IMG/VR virus record: IMGVR_UViG_3300028145_000047
Location: 1 to 25,090 of that record
Length of the DNA stretch: 25,090 nucleotides
Reading direction: 5' to 3' (one strand)
Origin: a virus
Lineage: Duplodnaviria > Caudoviricetes
Below, piece by piece: positions 2,339-11,383 of this stretch. The number at the start of each line of letters is the position of its first letter. Position 1 is the first letter of the stretch. Under the pieces are notes generated by a model. That model had not been told where the DNA came from, searched no databases, and was given only the letters and a program-made list of their open reading frames with translations. The position numbers were made by a program, and so were the translations under genes.

Positions 2339-3385
2339 TCAGGTAACCTGAGATTCGGTATTCAGGAGCTGGTCGACGATCTTGATCGGGATGCCGCGGA
2401 ACACATCGCACGGCATGCCGGCATAGTCGGTCAGATGCAGCAACACGTTGCGGTCGCGCATGCCCTGGACGTCCATCCAGTGGCGCAGCGTTCGGTTGCA
2501 GTAGAAGACCGGGCGGATGCCGGGCGACGGATCGTTGACGGCGTCGGTCTTGGTGATGCCGGACGTTCCCTTACCGAGGTGCGGCGGCAGGAACATGACC
2601 TGCGCCATGGTGGCGAAGATGTCGAGCGCGTTCGGCCCGGCTAGGCCGGCGTTCGTGGTGTCGATGTTCGCGACACGCGCGCCGTACCGCCAATCCTGCG
2701 GGCACAGGCCCATCTGATGCCGGAACCACGAGGTATAGGCCTCGAACCGGTTGCCGAGCGAATCAAAGCCAGGCGTGGTGTCGGCCTTGTCTTCCATCGT
2801 GAGGCCCGCCTTGGAGCCGCGCGGATAGAGGCCGAAGATCGTTCGCTCGCCCCAGCAAATCAGCCACAGTGAGCAATTGGCCGAGGCCGTGCCGCCGCCG
2901 GAAATGACGTTCTGGGCGTTCTGGGCGTTGGCCTGCGTGATCGTATTGTAAAAGGGCGACATGCCCATGAACTCGATCGGCGTCACGGTCGTATTGCCGT
3001 AGAAAAGCGTCTGAGCCATCGTCTGGCTCATGCCCTCCAGGAACGCGACGTCCTCATTCTCGCGGAACTGGTCGATGTCGCCGGAATCCTCGGCGAGCAT
3101 GCGGTCGACCTGGGAATAGTCTTCCAGCGAGCCCAGACCGACCCGCGCCTTTGCGGTGGTCGACTTGCTGTAGGGGATGCCCATATTGTACTGGCGCCAA
3201 GCGCCGGCCGGGATCGAAGTCCGGAAGACGAACTCGTGGCCGCCGATCTCATTGGCCTCGAGGATCGGCATATCGTCCCAGATATCGTTTGCCTGGGACA
3301 GCATTTCCGAAATGTAGACCTGCTTCTGCGCGCCGTTGATGCGGCTTGAGAGATCGATAAGGGTGGGCCACTGACCGGTCGCCAT
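2339..3385 (-). CDS. Major capsid protein (HK97 fold, BPP-1 Bbp17-like)
   Basis: 348 aa; PTLIDL, RTSIPAGAWR, EDVAFLEGMSQ, LFYGN, DWRYGARVANID and FRGIPIKIVDQLLNTE motifs; AAGGAG RBS; follows the scaffold gene. Confidence 0.92.
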   Translation of the reverse strand: MATGQWPTLIDLSSRINGAQKQVYISEMLSQANDIWDDMPILEANEIGGHEFVFRTSIPAGAWRQYNMGIPYSKSTTAKARVGLGSLEDYSQVDRMLAEDSGDIDQFRENEDVAFLEGMSQTMAQTLFYGNTTVTPIEFMGMSPFYNTITQANAQNAQNVISGGGTASANCSLWLICWGERTIFGLYPRGSKAGLTMEDKADTTPGFDSLGNRFEAYTSWFRHQMGLCPQDWRYGARVANIDTTNAGLAGPNALDIFATMAQVMFLPPHLGKGTSGITKTDAVNDPSPGIRPVFYCNRTLRHWMDVQGMRDRNVLLHLTDYAGMPCDVFRGIPIKIVDQLLNTESQVT

Positions 3386-5227: not shown

Positions 5228-5255
5228 AAGTAGCGAAGTGAACCGGAGGGATTCC

Positions 5256-5471
5256 ATGGCCGACGAAAAAGAGTGGCTAAATCGCAAAGATGCAGCGCGA
5301 TTCCTTACCTCGATCGGCTGTCCGATCTCTCCAGGGACGCTCGCAAACTACGCTTCGAACAACAACGCCGGCAAAGGCCCGCCGTTTACCCGCTTCCGGT
5401 GGAATCGGGTCTCCTATCACAAGCCCGAGTTGCGCCTTTGGGCCGCTCGGCAGAGCATAAAGGTGGCGTGA
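5256..5471 (+). CDS. Excisionase/AlpA-like helix-turn-helix DNA-binding protein
   Basis: GGAGG RBS; WLNRKDAARFL...SPGTLANYAS...GKGPPF...RVSY...LRLW pattern of MerR/Xis-like winged HTH proteins. Confidence 0.8.
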   Translation: MADEKEWLNRKDAARFLTSIGCPISPGTLANYASNNNAGKGPPFTRFRWNRVSYHKPELRLWAARQSIKVA

Positions 5472-5704
5472 TGATTCTCACGACGTTCAAGGGCATAGAT
5501 CCGTCGGCCTCGCGGCGCGGTTGCGAGGAATACGACATGGAGGACGGCACTACGTTCCTCTGGCCGCGATGCGAGATCAGCGGCTGCGCCAACGGCATCT
5601 GCGCAGGGATGAGCAAGAGCCTTTGCTACCCGCACGGGATTGAGTTCGGAGCGTTCACCGTGGCACAGTTTGAGGCCAACCGAAGGAAGAAGTTCGCCGA
5701 ATGA
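5471..5704 (+). CDS. Small Cys/His-rich hypothetical protein (77 aa)
   Basis: TGATG coupling to the HTH gene; CEISGC...C...CYPH suggests metal binding. Confidence 0.6.
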   Translation: MILTTFKGIDPSASRRGCEEYDMEDGTTFLWPRCEISGCANGICAGMSKSLCYPHGIEFGAFTVAQFEANRRKKFAE

Positions 5705-5970
5705 CCCTCCAGCCCTCCCGCCGCGGCTTCATCACCGGCCTCGTGTCGCTCGCGGTCACCGCCCCGGCCATCGTCAAATCTGCCAGCCTTATGCCCGTGA
5801 AGCTGATGCTGCCGAGCCGGCCGAGCCTGATCTACAGCAACCGCGTGATCCGCCGTTATGTGGACATTGAGGCTTTCCGAGATCGAAACATTTTGCTGCG
5901 GATTACCGAGGATGTGAATTATCTGGCAGTGCCGATCCGTGTGATCGACTTAGGTCCATCGCCATGGTGA
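5701..5970 (+). CDS. Tat-like leader fused to a major capsid protein C-terminal fragment
   Basis: SRRGFITG leader; residues 45-83 align to MCP residues 295-338, with 12/26 identical in the ungapped first block; ATGA coupling. Confidence 0.8.
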   Translation: MTLQPSRRGFITGLVSLAVTAPAIVKSASLMPVKLMLPSRPSLIYSNRVIRRYVDIEAFRDRNILLRITEDVNYLAVPIRVIDLGPSPW

Positions 5971-6290
5971 CTAGTCGCCGCTCGTTCATCACCGGCCTGA
6001 TCGCCTTCGCCGCCGCGCCTGCGATCGTCCGCGCGTCTAGTCTGATGCCGGTCAAGGCTATGGTGCCGGATCTGGAATGGCTTGAAGAGGATTTCGTTTT
6101 CCGGACTTCCATTCCCGCTGGAGATTGGCGGATGATCAATGCGCCATATGGGCGGTCGCCGGCCATGGACTGCCTGCTTGGGGCCAAGGAGGTGTGCGCC
6201 CATCTTGAACGGTTCCTGCGCCGAGCGCCGCCGATCATCGAGTTCGACAAGATCGACACCTCAGACCCGCTGTGGGCGATGCCGAAGTGA
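5964..6290 (+). CDS. Tat-like leader fused to major capsid and portal fragments (chimera)
   Basis: SRRSFITG leader; FVFRTSIPAGDWR matches MCP 52-64 at 12/13; NAPYGRSPAMDCLLGAK matches portal 315-331 at 11/17. Confidence 0.85.
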   Translation: MVTSRRSFITGLIAFAAAPAIVRASSLMPVKAMVPDLEWLEEDFVFRTSIPAGDWRMINAPYGRSPAMDCLLGAKEVCAHLERFLRRAPPIIEFDKIDTSDPLWAMPK

Positions 6291-6466
6291 GATACGCGCT
6301 GATCGCCATCGGCATCTGGCTCGTCCTGGCAATGACCGTTGGCCCGATCGTCGACTACGCCGAACACACCATTCGAACGGCGATTCACGTCGCTTACGAA
6401 TGCAAGGACCGAGGACGGTCAGAGCCCGAATGCCGTCATGATGTTAGGACGGAACTTACCCGTTGA
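6287..6466 (+). CDS. Small single-pass membrane protein
   Basis: GTGA overlap with the previous stop; N-terminal hydrophobic helix followed by a Cys pair (ECKDRGRSEPEC). Confidence 0.6.
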   Translation: MRYALIAIGIWLVLAMTVGPIVDYAEHTIRTAIHVAYECKDRGRSEPECRHDVRTELTR

Positions 6467-6824
6467 TAGTCACATTGAGGATCGCACGCGCACCGCCTTG
6501 TGCCGTAACGGCGTTACCTTCAATCAAAGACTTGATCGCGTCGAGGATCGTTTTTGCTTGTGTGAACTGCGTGGATGAAAGTGCCTGCGATAGGGCTACG
6601 CTGCTGATTGGATGGGCAGTGTTCGGAGCGCCATCAGCGGCACCCGGAGATCCATCGGCATTCACAGCCGTCGTCGCCATAGCGGCCAAAACCGTAGCCG
6701 CTCCCGTATCCGTCCAAGCTGCATCGAGAGCAACAATCTGCTGATACAGCACCATCATCTGCTGCGAGATCGAAACGATGTTGTTAGCGATCCTGATCGC
6801 CTGTGAATTTAGCGTTCCTGACAT
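6456..6824 (-). CDS. Hypothetical protein coupled to the fibre gene (possible chaperone or structural protein)
   Basis: TAATG overlap with the fibre gene stop; GGGAG RBS; helical, Ala/Gln-rich. Confidence 0.7.
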   Translation of the reverse strand: MSGTLNSQAIRIANNIVSISQQMMVLYQQIVALDAAWTDTGAATVLAAMATTAVNADGSPGAADGAPNTAHPISSVALSQALSSTQFTQAKTILDAIKSLIEGNAVTAQGGARAILNVTING

Positions 6825-8902
6825 TATAGTCTCCCATATATTCTGACAGTGCCGCTGGTGATATTCCCGCTATTGAACAGTACCTGAAAACCATCGATAG
6901 CGCCATTGCCGCCGTTCCAATATCCGCCGTAGGTAGCGACGAATGCGTTCGTCGCATTCGTCGAAACCATGACACCTGACCACATTTTCGGGGCCGTCGT
7001 CTGCGACGGCTTGTTGACCCGCACATATCCATTCAGGCCGGGAGCAGCATTCGAGACTGATGCTGCACTGGATATCGAAATGAACGTCGTCGTGTTGTTG
7101 ACCGCCGTTACTGTTGCTGCCGCTAAATTTGTTGCGATGTACGAAGTCGCAGGGAAGGTACCACCGCTATGAACCTGCAACTCGAACGTGGTGGCGTTGG
7201 TCGCCGGGATGATATCTTCGAACTCGATATTGTACTCGTCGAATGCTGCGGTCAGACTCGTCGTGTCAGACAATGTAGCCGAATTGCTGGCTGTGAGCGT
7301 GTTGAGCAGCACATATCCGCCATCAGCGCCAGGCTGATGCGGGCACAGATAATTCGTGCCATCTGATACGATTTTGAGAGTCTGCCCCGGATAGATCTTG
7401 ACCGAACTCCCACCGCAGATAGTTGACGTCGTCGGCGTGACCGTAACTATCGCTGCTGGCTGTGTTGTCGGCTGGATATTGCGAATTTCTGTGAACCAGC
7501 CGGCGAAGAATGCGCTCGCTGTGCTGGCTTGTGCGATCGTGTAGGCTTGAGCTGCCGTGTTGCTGGCGGTGACGAGCTTCCCTCGATCGCCGTCAGCGAT
7601 GGCATAGCTCGTTCCTACTTGCGCATTGACGCACTCTGCCGCCGATAGCGTCGTCTGGCCTGCGGTCTGGGAGCAGTTCGCGGTCGTGGACGAAACTAAT
7701 CCTGCGCCTGGCGTCGTGACCGTTCCAGAGCCTGCGGAAACCCATGAAGTGACGCCAGTGCCATCGGTTTGGAGAATGTTGGTATTCGACCCATTGGTGG
7801 CCGGCAGTTGAAAGATCGTGCTCGTACCGGCCGCAGCAGCCACACGCACCGCAGCACTGCCCGACGTCGATCCGTTGAGAGTGATCTGGCCGCCGGTGCC
7901 TCCGTTCGCTCCCAGCGTCGGCGTAGCGGTCGCCGCGATCGTATTAGCCGAAGCGGAGCCGAGCACGGTGCCTGCTGCCGTTGTCGCAGGATAAGTGGCC
8001 GTCGACCACGAAGGCGTCGTAGATGAGCCAGAAAGCGGAATCTGATTTGCCGTCGCGGTGCCAGCGAGGATCGCAAGTGCAGATGCGGTCGAATAGACCA
8101 GTCCGCCATTGCTTGCAGCGGCAGGGTATCCTACGGCCGCCCAAGATGGAGTTACCGAGGCGCCGGACAGAAGCGGCACGGACGCTGTCGCTGTCCCGGC
8201 AAGAATGTTCAACTTCGATGCGTCGGACCAAACGATGCCGCCAGCCGATGCCGTCAGGTTGGCGTTCGTGCCGCCATTCGCCAAGGGCACAAGACCGGAG
8301 AGGGTCGACAGAGTGAAACTGAGTGTGAACCCGGCTCCCGTGCCGCCGCCCGTAAGCGTCCCCACTGTCGTCAATGATGACGTGACAACGTTCGATGCCA
8401 GCGTCGTTCCTGTCACCGTACCGGCTGGAGCGATGACGACATTCGTCCCCGCCAGCGTAAGTTGGCCTTGCTGGTTGACCGTGAAATTCGGAATCGCTGT
8501 CGATGAACCGTAAGATGCCGGCGTTACCGCGGTGTTCGTGATGTTGAGATTGCCGGCGCCACTCGAAAGACCTGTCCCGATATTGAGCGGGAAGATCGTG
8601 CCAGGCGAAACGCTGTTGAGTTTCGTGCAAGTCAGGACGCCTAGATTTATGATCGTGCAATCACCCGAGATCGCAACTCCCGTAGCAACATTCAAGCTGT
8701 TGCCGACATAGACGAACTGATTCGTCAGCGGCAGGCCGGCGGCAATGCTGTTGCCAACAAATGCGGTCGATGCGCAGCGGTTCGAGCTATCGCCCGTCGG
8801 GGCGGTCGGGCAAATCGAATTTTGGGCATAGGTCGGCGCCCAGAGCAGCGCCAGAGCAAGGAGAGCGGCCTTAGCCGTAAAGAGACAGCGCAGTAAGCGC
8901 AT
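6824..8902 (-). CDS. Fibre/adhesin-like protein with Sec signal peptide (~692 aa)
   Basis: Start MRLLRCLFTAKAALLALALLWAPTYA|Q behind GGGGA; Thr/Ser/Gly/Ala-rich; fibre-type motifs (VPLANGGTNA, LQTDGTGVTSW, SDGTNY, SGNITSGTVRIYG); tandem ~45 aa internal repeat. Confidence 0.75.
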   Translation of the reverse strand: MRLLRCLFTAKAALLALALLWAPTYAQNSICPTAPTGDSSNRCASTAFVGNSIAAGLPLTNQFVYVGNSLNVATGVAISGDCTIINLGVLTCTKLNSVSPGTIFPLNIGTGLSSGAGNLNITNTAVTPASYGSSTAIPNFTVNQQGQLTLAGTNVVIAPAGTVTGTTLASNVVTSSLTTVGTLTGGGTGAGFTLSFTLSTLSGLVPLANGGTNANLTASAGGIVWSDASKLNILAGTATASVPLLSGASVTPSWAAVGYPAAASNGGLVYSTASALAILAGTATANQIPLSGSSTTPSWSTATYPATTAAGTVLGSASANTIAATATPTLGANGGTGGQITLNGSTSGSAAVRVAAAAGTSTIFQLPATNGSNTNILQTDGTGVTSWVSAGSGTVTTPGAGLVSSTTANCSQTAGQTTLSAAECVNAQVGTSYAIADGDRGKLVTASNTAAQAYTIAQASTASAFFAGWFTEIRNIQPTTQPAAIVTVTPTTSTICGGSSVKIYPGQTLKIVSDGTNYLCPHQPGADGGYVLLNTLTASNSATLSDTTSLTAAFDEYNIEFEDIIPATNATTFELQVHSGGTFPATSYIATNLAAATVTAVNNTTTFISISSAASVSNAAPGLNGYVRVNKPSQTTAPKMWSGVMVSTNATNAFVATYGGYWNGGNGAIDGFQVLFNSGNITSGTVRIYGRL

Positions 8903-9554
8903 TGGCATTCCCCGATTGAGCCGCGCCGTTCCATGCGCAATTGATCTTGACGTAGTCGTTCCCCAAGATGGTCTTGGTATCGCCCGGAAGCACGATGATC
9001 GAACCGGCCCCGATCGATGCCCCGAGGTTCGACGGGCAGACCCCGATCTGCACCGCCCCCGGATTATGGAATTGCACGCCCATCCGGTTCGGATCGGCCG
9101 CAAGGATCTGCTGCGATCCGGTCCCGAGCGTCAGCGTCTCCGCGGAAACAGGCGATGCGATCGAGTTCTGCATCAAGGTCCGGATCGTCTGCCGCACCTG
9201 GGGAGCGCCCGGCGTGTTCGGAGTGAACGAGAGCACGGTCAAGAGCCCGTCGGTGTTGTCGTCGGTCACCGCCTGCCAAGCCACATTGATGTTGAAGTGC
9301 GAGCCCTGATCCTGCAGCAACTTGTACTCGGATTGCGGGTAGATCACGATGCCGCCGGTGCCGCCGACCAGCGCCTGACCCACGGGAAGTATCCGCTTCG
9401 GCTTGCTGCCCGGGTTGTGGAAAATCACGCCTTTGCACGCCGGATCGGCCGCCAGCACGGTCTGGGCTACCGTCGTCAATCCGGTGACAGCGATCGAATA
9501 CGGCCCGAGGATCGGGTAATCACTCCATGAAATGCCAGAGGTGACGCCCATCAC
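8871..9554 (-). CDS. Two-repeat beta-domain putative virion decoration protein
   Basis: Internal duplication: VLAADPACKGVIFHNPG...GGIVIYP...INVAW versus ILAADPNRMGVQFHNPG...GSIIVLP...INCAW. Confidence 0.7.
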   Translation of the reverse strand: MMGVTSGISWSDYPILGPYSIAVTGLTTVAQTVLAADPACKGVIFHNPGSKPKRILPVGQALVGGTGGIVIYPQSEYKLLQDQGSHFNINVAWQAVTDDNTDGLLTVLSFTPNTPGAPQVRQTIRTLMQNSIASPVSAETLTLGTGSQQILAADPNRMGVQFHNPGAVQIGVCPSNLGASIGAGSIIVLPGDTKTILGNDYVKINCAWNGAAQSGNANALTALSLYG

Positions 9555-11383
9555 GCATTCCCTTGTGTCGGCATGCCGGTCAGCGCTCCCAGCGCGGTAC
9601 CCGGCGCAAGCTTGGTATCGGCGAGGGTCTTAGCCGCGCTCACCGCCGCCATCGCCTGCTGTGGCGCCTGGGCTTGCTGTGAGCCCTGCTCGCGCGCCTG
9701 ATCATGCTTGATGACTTCCTGCTCGGTGAAGAAGCATTCGGCCGGGAAGTTGGCAAGCTCGCCGTATTTGCGCGCCGCCTTGTCGAGATCGATGACCCGG
9801 ATCGGATCGGGCACACCGGCGGCCTTCGCCGCGCTGGAGAGTTCGCCCATCGTCCCGAACACATCCTTCATCGCCACCGTCTCGGCCGAACGCTGCGCCA
9901 ACTTCATGATCGACATATAGTTGATTTTGAGGGGCACATTCTGCAATGACCGCGGCTTGGGCTTGAGCATCCGGCGGTTTTCGAGGATCTCGAGCACGCG
10001 CTGGATCGCGGGGCCAGCAAACTCCGTCTCGAACAGCTCAATGAACGGTCCCAACGACTGAAGCCGCTCAAGGTCGCGCTTGGTCAGTTCGAGCTCGTTC
10101 CGAGGCTGGACACCCTCCATCCGCGAAATCGCCATGAACAGGTCGACGAACAGGCACTTCTCAATCCGCTGGGAGACTTCCTTGATGTCGGCGGCGAGCC
10201 CGGTCAACCAAGCCGGCGCGACCTCGAACAGCGGCCAGAAGCCCTTTTTCCCGCCGTCGGTCGACATATAGGTCGTATGCCCTGGTAGGATGGAATTTGG
10301 CTCATTCTTCAGTTCCGGGTTGGCACCCATCGGCGGCCGCACGCCCTTCTCAATGAACTCGGCCTTCCGCACCGTCTCGAGCTGGAGCTGCTTGTCGTCG
10401 CCCAGGGCATCCATGCACGGCGACCGGCCGTAGGGCTCGTTCGACACCATCGCCCAACGCGCGCACATAAACGGCTTCATCCGGAAGCCGCGGCGCGACA
10501 ACGGCTCAGGCGTCTTGATTCCCTTCAGCCAATAAACCTCGCGATAGGGGAAAATGCCGGGAACGACCGTGACCGTCGCTTTGCGCTGGCCCTTCTTCGC
10601 GATATCGAAATTCGGCTCAATCGCGTGGCAGACGACATACTCGGTATCGAGATTATTCGCCTGCCAATGGTCTTGAATCTGCTTCGGACATTTCTCCAAG
10701 GTGGCAAATTCAACGATCTGCTGCACCGTGAACGTAAACTCTCGATAAAGGGTATCGATCGACAGCCGCGCGCCGGCCGCCAGGAACGCCTCGCCAGCAC
10801 ACGGCAAGTAGCAGCGGATGACGTCCTCGAAATCCTCGTAGATGATGACCGGCGCCGTTCCGAACACGACCACGTCTTGAAACGCCTGAGCCATGATCGT
10901 GTAGAAATTCGACTGTCCGAGCACCGTGTAAACGCGCGCCTCGGTGTCCTCCAGCCATTCCTTGCCGTCGGCGTCGAGTTCAACCCACGGCAGCGCCTTG
11001 TCGAGCTTGAACCACGGCCGCGATGGGCTCGTGAGACCCGTCCACATTCCCGATGCGCAGGTCTGGACCGCGAGCGTGCCGGTCGAATCGATGATCCTGT
11101 CGTTGATGGGGTTGCCGCGGGCCATTCGATTGGCAACCACGAGCCAGTGATAACGGCGGGGAAGGAAGAACTCGGCCAGGCGGGACCAATGGGCCCACCA
11201 CGAATAGCGCCACGTCCGCAGCACGCCGAGCCGGGCCTCGAGGTATAGGTAGATTGTGATCCACCACTCGGCGTCGGGCTGGAGCTTCTCGGGCGACGTC
11301 GCCGGCTGCTGTGAAAGCAGAGAGGCGCTCATGTCCATGTATGGAGCGGTGGCGGCTTGGGCGACGGAGAGGGCTTCCGCCAT
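9551..11383 (-). CDS. Portal protein (T7-like head-tail connector family, Bbp21-like)
   Basis: 610 aa; IIDSTG, GLTSPSRPWFKL, VVFGTAP, PYGRSPCMDALGD and FVDLF motifs; Gln/Ala-rich C-terminus. Confidence 0.93.
   Translation of the reverse strand: MAEALSVAQAATAPYMDMSASLLSQQPATSPEKLQPDAEWWITIYLYLEARLGVLRTWRYSWWAHWSRLAEFFLPRRYHWLVVANRMARGNPINDRIIDSTGTLAVQTCASGMWTGLTSPSRPWFKLDKALPWVELDADGKEWLEDTEARVYTVLGQSNFYTIMAQAFQDVVVFGTAPVIIYEDFEDVIRCYLPCAGEAFLAAGARLSIDTLYREFTFTVQQIVEFATLEKCPKQIQDHWQANNLDTEYVVCHAIEPNFDIAKKGQRKATVTVVPGIFPYREVYWLKGIKTPEPLSRRGFRMKPFMCARWAMVSNEPYGRSPCMDALGDDKQLQLETVRKAEFIEKGVRPPMGANPELKNEPNSILPGHTTYMSTDGGKKGFWPLFEVAPAWLTGLAADIKEVSQRIEKCLFVDLFMAISRMEGVQPRNELELTKRDLERLQSLGPFIELFETEFAGPAIQRVLEILENRRMLKPKPRSLQNVPLKINYMSIMKLAQRSAETVAMKDVFGTMGELSSAAKAAGVPDPIRVIDLDKAARKYGELANFPAECFFTEQEVIKHDQAREQGSQQAQAPQQAMAAVSAAKTLADTKLAPGTALGALTGMPTQGNA

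Follow-up and report, generated by a model that had tools for sequence, protein, structure and literature searches.

The window, the whole stretch of DNA analysed here, is an entire virus record of 25,090 nt (IMG/VR record IMGVR_UViG_3300028145_000047). Its minus strand encodes a terminase, a portal, a scaffold and a GP7-family major capsid protein (MCP). The MCP (348 aa; 2339–3385, minus strand; Pfam GP7, phrog_212) represents the donor family of the two chimeric products described below, and the portal (610 aa; 9551–11383, minus strand; Pfam PF12236, phrog_332) that of a YGRSP-containing piece in one of them. Solved structures related to the MCP are PDB entries 3J4U, 3J40 and 8CJZ, the first two of which we take to be BPP-1 and epsilon15, respectively; the portal is related to PDB entry 8CK0. 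As the nearest named MCP (84% identity) lies on a Rhizobium chromosome, the host is probably a rhizobial alphaproteobacterium.

A five-gene accessory operon (5238–6466, plus strand), with ORFs that overlap stop to start, runs antisense to the head module. It opens with a small HTH/excisionase-like gene (5238–5471, plus strand; phrog_66, E = 0.099), homologues of which occur in loci L009, L043, L053, L153 and L162. This gene is followed by a stop/start-coupled ORF for a 77-aa Cys-rich protein (5471–5704, plus strand), matched by neither NCBIfam nor PADLOC, by the two genes that are the subject of this report (5701–5970 and 5964–6290) and by a last ORF of 59 aa with a hydrophobic N-terminus (6287–6466, plus strand). 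PADLOC defence profiles matched no family among nine proteins, and a promoter scan returned two sites, compared with 1.0 expected, and none on the plus strand. Between relatives, the HTH gene is kept and the genes behind it differ. Tail-like and unknown genes (6456–9554) separate the portal from the scaffold in the window, unlike in the relatives L009, L043 and L053, where the portal adjoins the accessory operon directly.

The gene at 5964–6290 (plus strand) encodes a 108-aa mini-protein composed of a leader, an MCP piece, a portal piece and a tail, with full-length homologues (P0002–P0004) of 72–86% identity. The leader comprises residues 1–31 (5964–6056). Residues 44–59 (6093–6140) correspond to MCP residues 52–67, presumably in the E-loop region of the HK97 fold, and residues 61–75 (6144–6188) to portal residues 317–331 with the YGRSP motif. 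Between residues 44–56 and MCP residues 52–64, 12 of 13 amino acids are identical, with one replacement and seven synonymous differences, six of which fall within FVFRTSIPAG. Residues 59–75 share 11 of 17 amino acids with portal residues 315–331, and at the common N, P, Y, G and D all differences are silent. The original prediction had read this ORF as a chimera of leader, MCP and portal; its coordinates and codon counts are reproduced, and neither the MCP score nor the portal score of the cargo is reached by any of 5,000 shuffles. No donor was found for the C-terminal tail (residues 76–108; 6189–6287), the last ~17 residues of which are common to P0002–P0007, including members bearing other MCP pieces. 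A candidate third MCP piece in residues 70–108 was discarded, with 31–51 of 60 shuffles scoring equally well. AlphaFold models of the MCP (pLDDT 30, five sequences) and the mini-protein (pLDDT 49) were both uninformative.

The switch from one parent to the other had been placed at a shared tryptophan. W55, R56 and N59 align without gaps to MCP W63, R64 and N67, and N59 has the MCP codon. At the same position, P0002 and P0003 read WRQINQGAPYGRS, and P0004 reads WHQINQGVTYGRS. Because of the MCP codon at N59 and the occurrence of WRQINQGAPYGRS or a close variant in the homologues, the crossover is assigned by codon and homologue comparison to the PY common to the MCP (GIPY/GVPY) and the portal (EPY), with two residues gone from the window copy. 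The resulting junction, (A)PY, is common to both parents and occupies residues 60–62 (6141–6149).

The adjoining upstream ORF (5701–5970, plus strand; 89 aa; tblastn E = 5 × 10−9) is a second family member with the same leader and a C-terminal piece of the MCP, an architecture that the original prediction did not include. Residues 40–83 match MCP residues from about 291 to 338, and the match is equalled by none of 5,000 shuffles. A seemingly portal-derived piece in this ORF (PIRVIDL, 7/7 identical) was rejected: its score is reached by 368 of 5,000 shuffles, and it also aligns to the end of the MCP.

The leader has the anatomy of a twin-arginine (Tat) signal peptide. An RR pair at residues 5 and 6 (SRRSF) precedes a hydrophobic h-region with a mean Kyte–Doolittle value of 2.1, a predicted V-x-A cleavage site (V-R-A before S25) and a conserved SLMPVK. 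Its match to PF10518 (E = 0.025, 15 bits) falls under the cut-off of 22.7 bits, and no NCBIfam family matched it. When the family was scanned with a pattern that omitted the arginines, all 50 distinct matches contained RR, 48 in a fixed window and two shifted; RRxF occurs in 109 of 186 family ORFs. Given this recovery of RR by an RR-blind scan, together with leader codons that vary freely across the family, the leader is under peptide constraint of the Tat type as judged by comparative analysis, and the Tat-like character first ascribed to it stands. Conservation continues past the predicted cleavage site, an extent partly imposed by the search patterns. The same leader heads three proteins of ~350 aa (P0211, P0212 and P0214), which are possibly folded Tat passengers; P0214 has a weak β-helix match.

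By sequence, both ORFs are members of a large family in which the leader is constant and the cargo can be swapped. A protein search returned 86 of 124 candidates including the query, nearly all of which share the leader alone. DNA scans for the leader returned 54 viral stretches, 93 of 119 in another scan, 333 of 589 metagenome stretches and 23 genome stretches, and at least 186 distinct family ORFs (median 97 aa) were extracted from the loci returned. A viral-contig search with the single mini-protein found no close relative, and an Atlas search gave unnamed clusters and Tat-signal clusters, taken as leads only. The leader had no match in cultured phage records and turned up in one of the 401 host-order genomes searched; an equally large search of that order gave GP7-type MCPs in 13 of 401. 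No description of such a family was found in the searchable full-text literature, from which subscription papers are mostly missing. This phage family appears to be undescribed, and the gene in the window is real, selected and chimeric, with a well-supported architecture.

Members also occur in other settings. On alphaproteobacterial chromosomes and metagenome-assembled genomes (L129–L133, L135–L138, L144–L146, L151 and P0209), the leader is joined to one conserved non-virion cargo, and in L151 (Bradyrhizobium) the neighbours of the leader gene are unlike prophage genes. Four leader genes are present in L030/G010 and three in L091/G029; in G010, two of them copy different parts of its P22-type coat protein. 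A Cys-rich cargo (PRCxxC...CxxTGGP) for which no donor was found recurs in L020, L045, L085, L221 and L105.

The origin of the cargos was traced at three scales. At a distance of up to 10 kb from the gene, a protein of the own locus is matched at 27 bits by 15 of 111 cargos, compared with 0 of 2,220 shuffles. Across 36 records, the window plus 35 others taken in full, 14 of 40 cargos match their own genome, compared with 39 of 1,400 foreign pairs and 3 of 800 shuffles; ten of these 14 were already known from the flanks, seven records having been picked for that reason, and the other 30 gave four new ones. Among 841 control small ORFs, none matches its own MCP. Against pooled proteins, 59 of 266 cargos reach 32 bits (shuffles, 17 of 2,660), and the protein matched is an MCP in 45 cases, another family member in nine, an unlabelled ORF in three, and a portal and a tail collar protein in one each. 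The MCP donors span phrogs 212, 283, 9953, 371, 334, 138 and 1357. The MCP is the source of 45 of the 59 traceable cargos, and 207 of 266 cargos have no traceable donor at 32 bits. No best match of the 59 was to homologues of the window's terminase or RecT, of which the pool held seven and three. Few matches came from a PHROG scan of 150 of the 185 cargos; those with a name were mostly to head, connector or tail proteins, and two were weak terminase matches.

YGxSP, the portal motif, is present in 12 of 266 cargos, compared with 0.2 expected, in seven unrelated contexts, joined to different MCP pieces and standing before or after them. From this recurrence in either order, capsid–portal chimeras are judged to have arisen or been reshuffled several times. 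The gene at L055:10001–10279 (G017) carries the portal and MCP motifs of the window gene in reversed order, and the MCP of its carrier belongs to another family. At L223:1612–2151 (L211:3674–3904 in the same genome), a leader continues in frame into the C-terminal ~145 aa of a GP7 MCP, and behind the fusion lies a homologue of the gene that usually comes after the MCP. This in-frame fusion indicates that DNA exchange happens; it is possibly an intermediate in gene birth, or the product of recombination between a mini-gene and an MCP gene.

The match of the 5964–6290 cargo is to the MCP family rather than to the allele of its own genome, and the donor looks like the MCP of a relative. In particular, 74 of 120 related MCPs outscore the window's own, and in the 14 own-match cases the own genome takes first rank nine times and a lower rank five times. 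The copied segment is the most conserved of the MCP among 121 relatives (99th percentile), and its single mismatch falls on the most variable position of that segment (61% conserved). Selection on the peptide had been argued from the silent differences to the window's own MCP. That argument alone is confounded, since the donor resembles the MCP of a relative and the changes could have arisen in the MCP lineage; the conclusion itself is supported by a related contig and by the family-wide dN/dS. The comparison specific to this gene consists of one 192-nt contig (depth 2.6) covering 6021–6205, with 9 of its 16 differences listed: codons 44–69 show five silent changes and one D-to-E change (binomial P = 0.005), and codons 32–34 show two replacements and one silent change. 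Over four pairs from different clusters, dN/dS is 0.32 for the cargo, below the value near 1 that would have spoken against selection, and 0.14 for the leader. The L211/L223 pair (0.94) was rejected as a divergent contig end of the same genome, and, where the same cluster supplied two pairs, one was left out; the cargo value is 0.37 with both pairs kept. At four-fold sites, 61 of 165 agree between cargos and their own donors. In view of the silent-biased changes, the dN/dS of 0.32 and these four-fold sites, the cargo is, by the measures of molecular evolution, kept as a peptide under purifying selection.

The genomic position of the family bears on its role. For the 30 genes with an identified MCP, the strand is that of the MCP in 22 cases and the opposite one in 8; a co-oriented gene lies 66 nt upstream of the open frame of its own MCP. 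The window genes are antisense to the late genes, within the head module, as are those of L009, L043 and L053 behind an HTH gene, and in L153, L161 and L171 the gene is in sense, near the terminase and portal. A tyrosine integrase, the one type tested, is present in 5 of 30 complete carriers. With 22 of 30 genes on the MCP strand and so few tyrosine integrases, these data fit self-protection during lytic growth.

We tentatively favour the reading that the mini-protein is an anti-defence decoy for sensors of short motifs, which would be removed through Tat. The cargo would bind host sensors specific for short motifs of head proteins, the leader would carry the sensor–cargo complex to the Tat translocase, and tethering to the membrane or export as a hitchhiker would take the sensor out of the cytoplasm. 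Since the phage cannot easily mutate such motifs in its real head proteins, a spare and disposable copy would provide a cheap escape, and several stitched motifs would cover several sensors. In this scheme we infer translation, Tat targeting, sensor binding and sensor removal. It fits best because of the constant export-type tag, the conserved motifs taken from the proteins most often sensed by bacteria, and the match to the carrier's own head family together with co-orientation. The cargos carry conserved linear motifs of the MCP and portal, with the MCP bias and the repeated YGxSP described above; part of this bias is ascertainment, as conserved donors are easier to detect. The heading of ~350-aa proteins by the same leader also agrees with this reading. 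Sensing of short MCP motifs is documented for Lit/Gol and CapRel in the available text of the sources (10.64898/2026.01.04.697583, PMC9712102), as is Tat export of complexes by hitchhiking (PMC4273604, in part), and Tat tolerates small unfolded substrates that expose no hydrophobic stretch (PMC13673990, in part).

The choice of sensor is narrowed by the size of the pieces. The best-known sensors of MCP and portal (Avs7, Avs8, Avs10 and the majority of the remaining Avs families) depend on broad folded surfaces, according to the accessible parts of the preprint and its journal version (10.64898/2026.01.04.697583, PMC13581612), and the CapRel–MCP model, as available, shows a folded P-domain surface of about 1,800 Å2 (PMC9712102). 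Pieces of 15–20 aa fail as a fold mimic, as the HK97 or portal core is not presented. Avs4, named at first as a target, is thereby made less likely: Avs sensors envelop folded cores, and a target would need to read short motifs, as Lit and CapRel are described to do in the text available. A mimic could also trigger a sensor instead of blocking it. Further points against the decoy are the cargo of G017, which derives from a head family not its own, the chromosomal subfamily with a non-virion cargo, the antisense placement of the window genes relative to the late genes, and the 207 untraced cargos.

That the cargo is often closer to relatives than to the own protein counts for a poison of rival assembly, a cargo that binds the capsid or portal of a related co-infecting or superinfecting phage at assembly interfaces, with Tat removing or tethering the product. 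The MCP of 84% identity on a Rhizobium chromosome also counts for it, and the antisense accessory operon within the head module (window, L009, L043 and L053) may resemble the place of Tai/Ati in the part of that account available (PMC11364771), with 8 of 30 genes overall antisense to their MCP. We regard this as unlikely, since with 22 of 30 genes co-oriented with their own MCP, one of them directly upstream, the product would poison its carrier; this also weakens the suggestion, made at the outset, that the head proteins of a competing phage are bound. Tyrosine integrases in 5 of 30 carriers, and a leader in 1 of 401 host-order genomes against 13 of 401 for GP7-type MCPs, speak against it as well.

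The difference in constraint between the two parts (0.14 for the leader, 0.32 for the cargo) and the conservation past the predicted cleavage site, partly search-imposed as noted, would suit a leader that is itself the active part, occupying or modulating Tat, signal peptidase or the membrane potential, with the cargo a tolerated soluble passenger taken from neighbouring head genes. Cargos do vary freely, non-virion ones occur, and a membrane-like stretch was found in 1 of 266. Such a reading leaves unexplained the repeated choice of the MCP, one portal motif in seven contexts and the retention of amino acids while silent sites are near-saturated, and we consider it improbable.

Self quality control, or cloaking, is rather less probable. 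The cargo would here bind and export stray capsid or portal monomers of its own phage and so lower what fold-reading sensors detect. Avs7, Avs8 and Avs10 bind the capsomer-forming surface of the MCP, as far as the available text of 10.64898/2026.01.04.697583 goes, and the own-family matching and co-orientation described above also count for it. The own allele is not favoured, however, and small fragments would, we infer, compete poorly with assembly.

A signal peptide that looks cleavable also allows for an exported peptide signal, whose targets would be neighbouring cells or incoming phages, with action in the periplasm or following lysis. No receptor gene adjoining the mini-gene was recognised with Pfam, PHROG or NCBIfam, and we know of no periplasmic reader of capsid or portal motifs, which makes this very improbable, even with the tolerance of Tat for small unfolded substrates. 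That the cargos are neutral scars, left when a mobile leader swaps DNA with nearby genes and its products decay, is largely refuted and most improbable of all: the L223 fusion does show DNA exchange, but dN/dS is below 1, the ORFs are intact and coupled, and full-length homologues exist.

Returning to the decoy, it is possible, though on the unlikely side, that phages of soil and freshwater Alphaproteobacteria share a modular counter-immunity platform, in which an export tag is combined with conserved epitopes of the phage's own virion and sensors are deported through Tat. In that case the collected cargos would amount to a naturally made map of sensed virion epitopes, such as the portal YGxSP and the MCP E-loop motif. 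If the cargos are decoys, they list the epitopes that bacteria sense and predict undiscovered sensors of short motifs; if they are poisons of rival assembly, evolution has supplied peptides that inhibit the building of capsids. Both readings are accessible to small synthetic genes. From the MCP–portal chimera it is evident that epitopes of two proteins are joined and reshuffled, and the window adds a two-donor chimera with a located junction, an adjoining second member, controls for donor bias and estimates of selection.

A constant export tag joined to copied pieces of the phage's own capsid and portal is an architecture that we did not find described, and it shares single features with several known systems. 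Avs4, Avs7, Avs8, Avs10 and Avs11, CapRel and Lit/Gol are triggered by the proteins that the cargos copy; these are host sensors, and a decoy that mimics the trigger is unmentioned in the available text of their descriptions (10.64898/2026.01.04.697583, PMC9712102). Anti-defence mimics and sponges, as far as covered by the accessible text (EVADES preprint 10.1101/2025.06.06.658234, PMC13728456), likewise disarm defence by mimicry, with DNA mimics and an antitoxin mimic as examples, but the object mimicked or captured is DNA, a nucleotide signal or an antitoxin rather than the phage's own head proteins; neither 'signal peptide' nor 'Tat' occurs in the text of PMC13728456 available. Tai/Ati likewise comprise small accessory genes of phages, in a non-contiguous operon, with an effect on virion assembly; they target the tail, not the head, and the accessible part of that account mentions neither an export leader nor virion-derived fragments (PMC11364771). 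Tat signal peptides (PF10518) share with the leader the RRxF motif, the hydrophobic stretch, the V-x-A site and the basic c-region, whereas here the leader is near-invariant across unrelated phages and carries a patchwork of virion fragments in place of a folded enzyme. A parallel to the proposed removal step is provided by the Tat hitchhiker carriers HybO/HybC and PaoA/PaoBC, in which a signal-bearing subunit exports partners lacking a signal, engineered complexes included; those carriers, in the portion of the source available, are folded cofactor subunits with a fixed partner, whereas the present family combines its leader with a swappable, putative binding part (PMC4273604).
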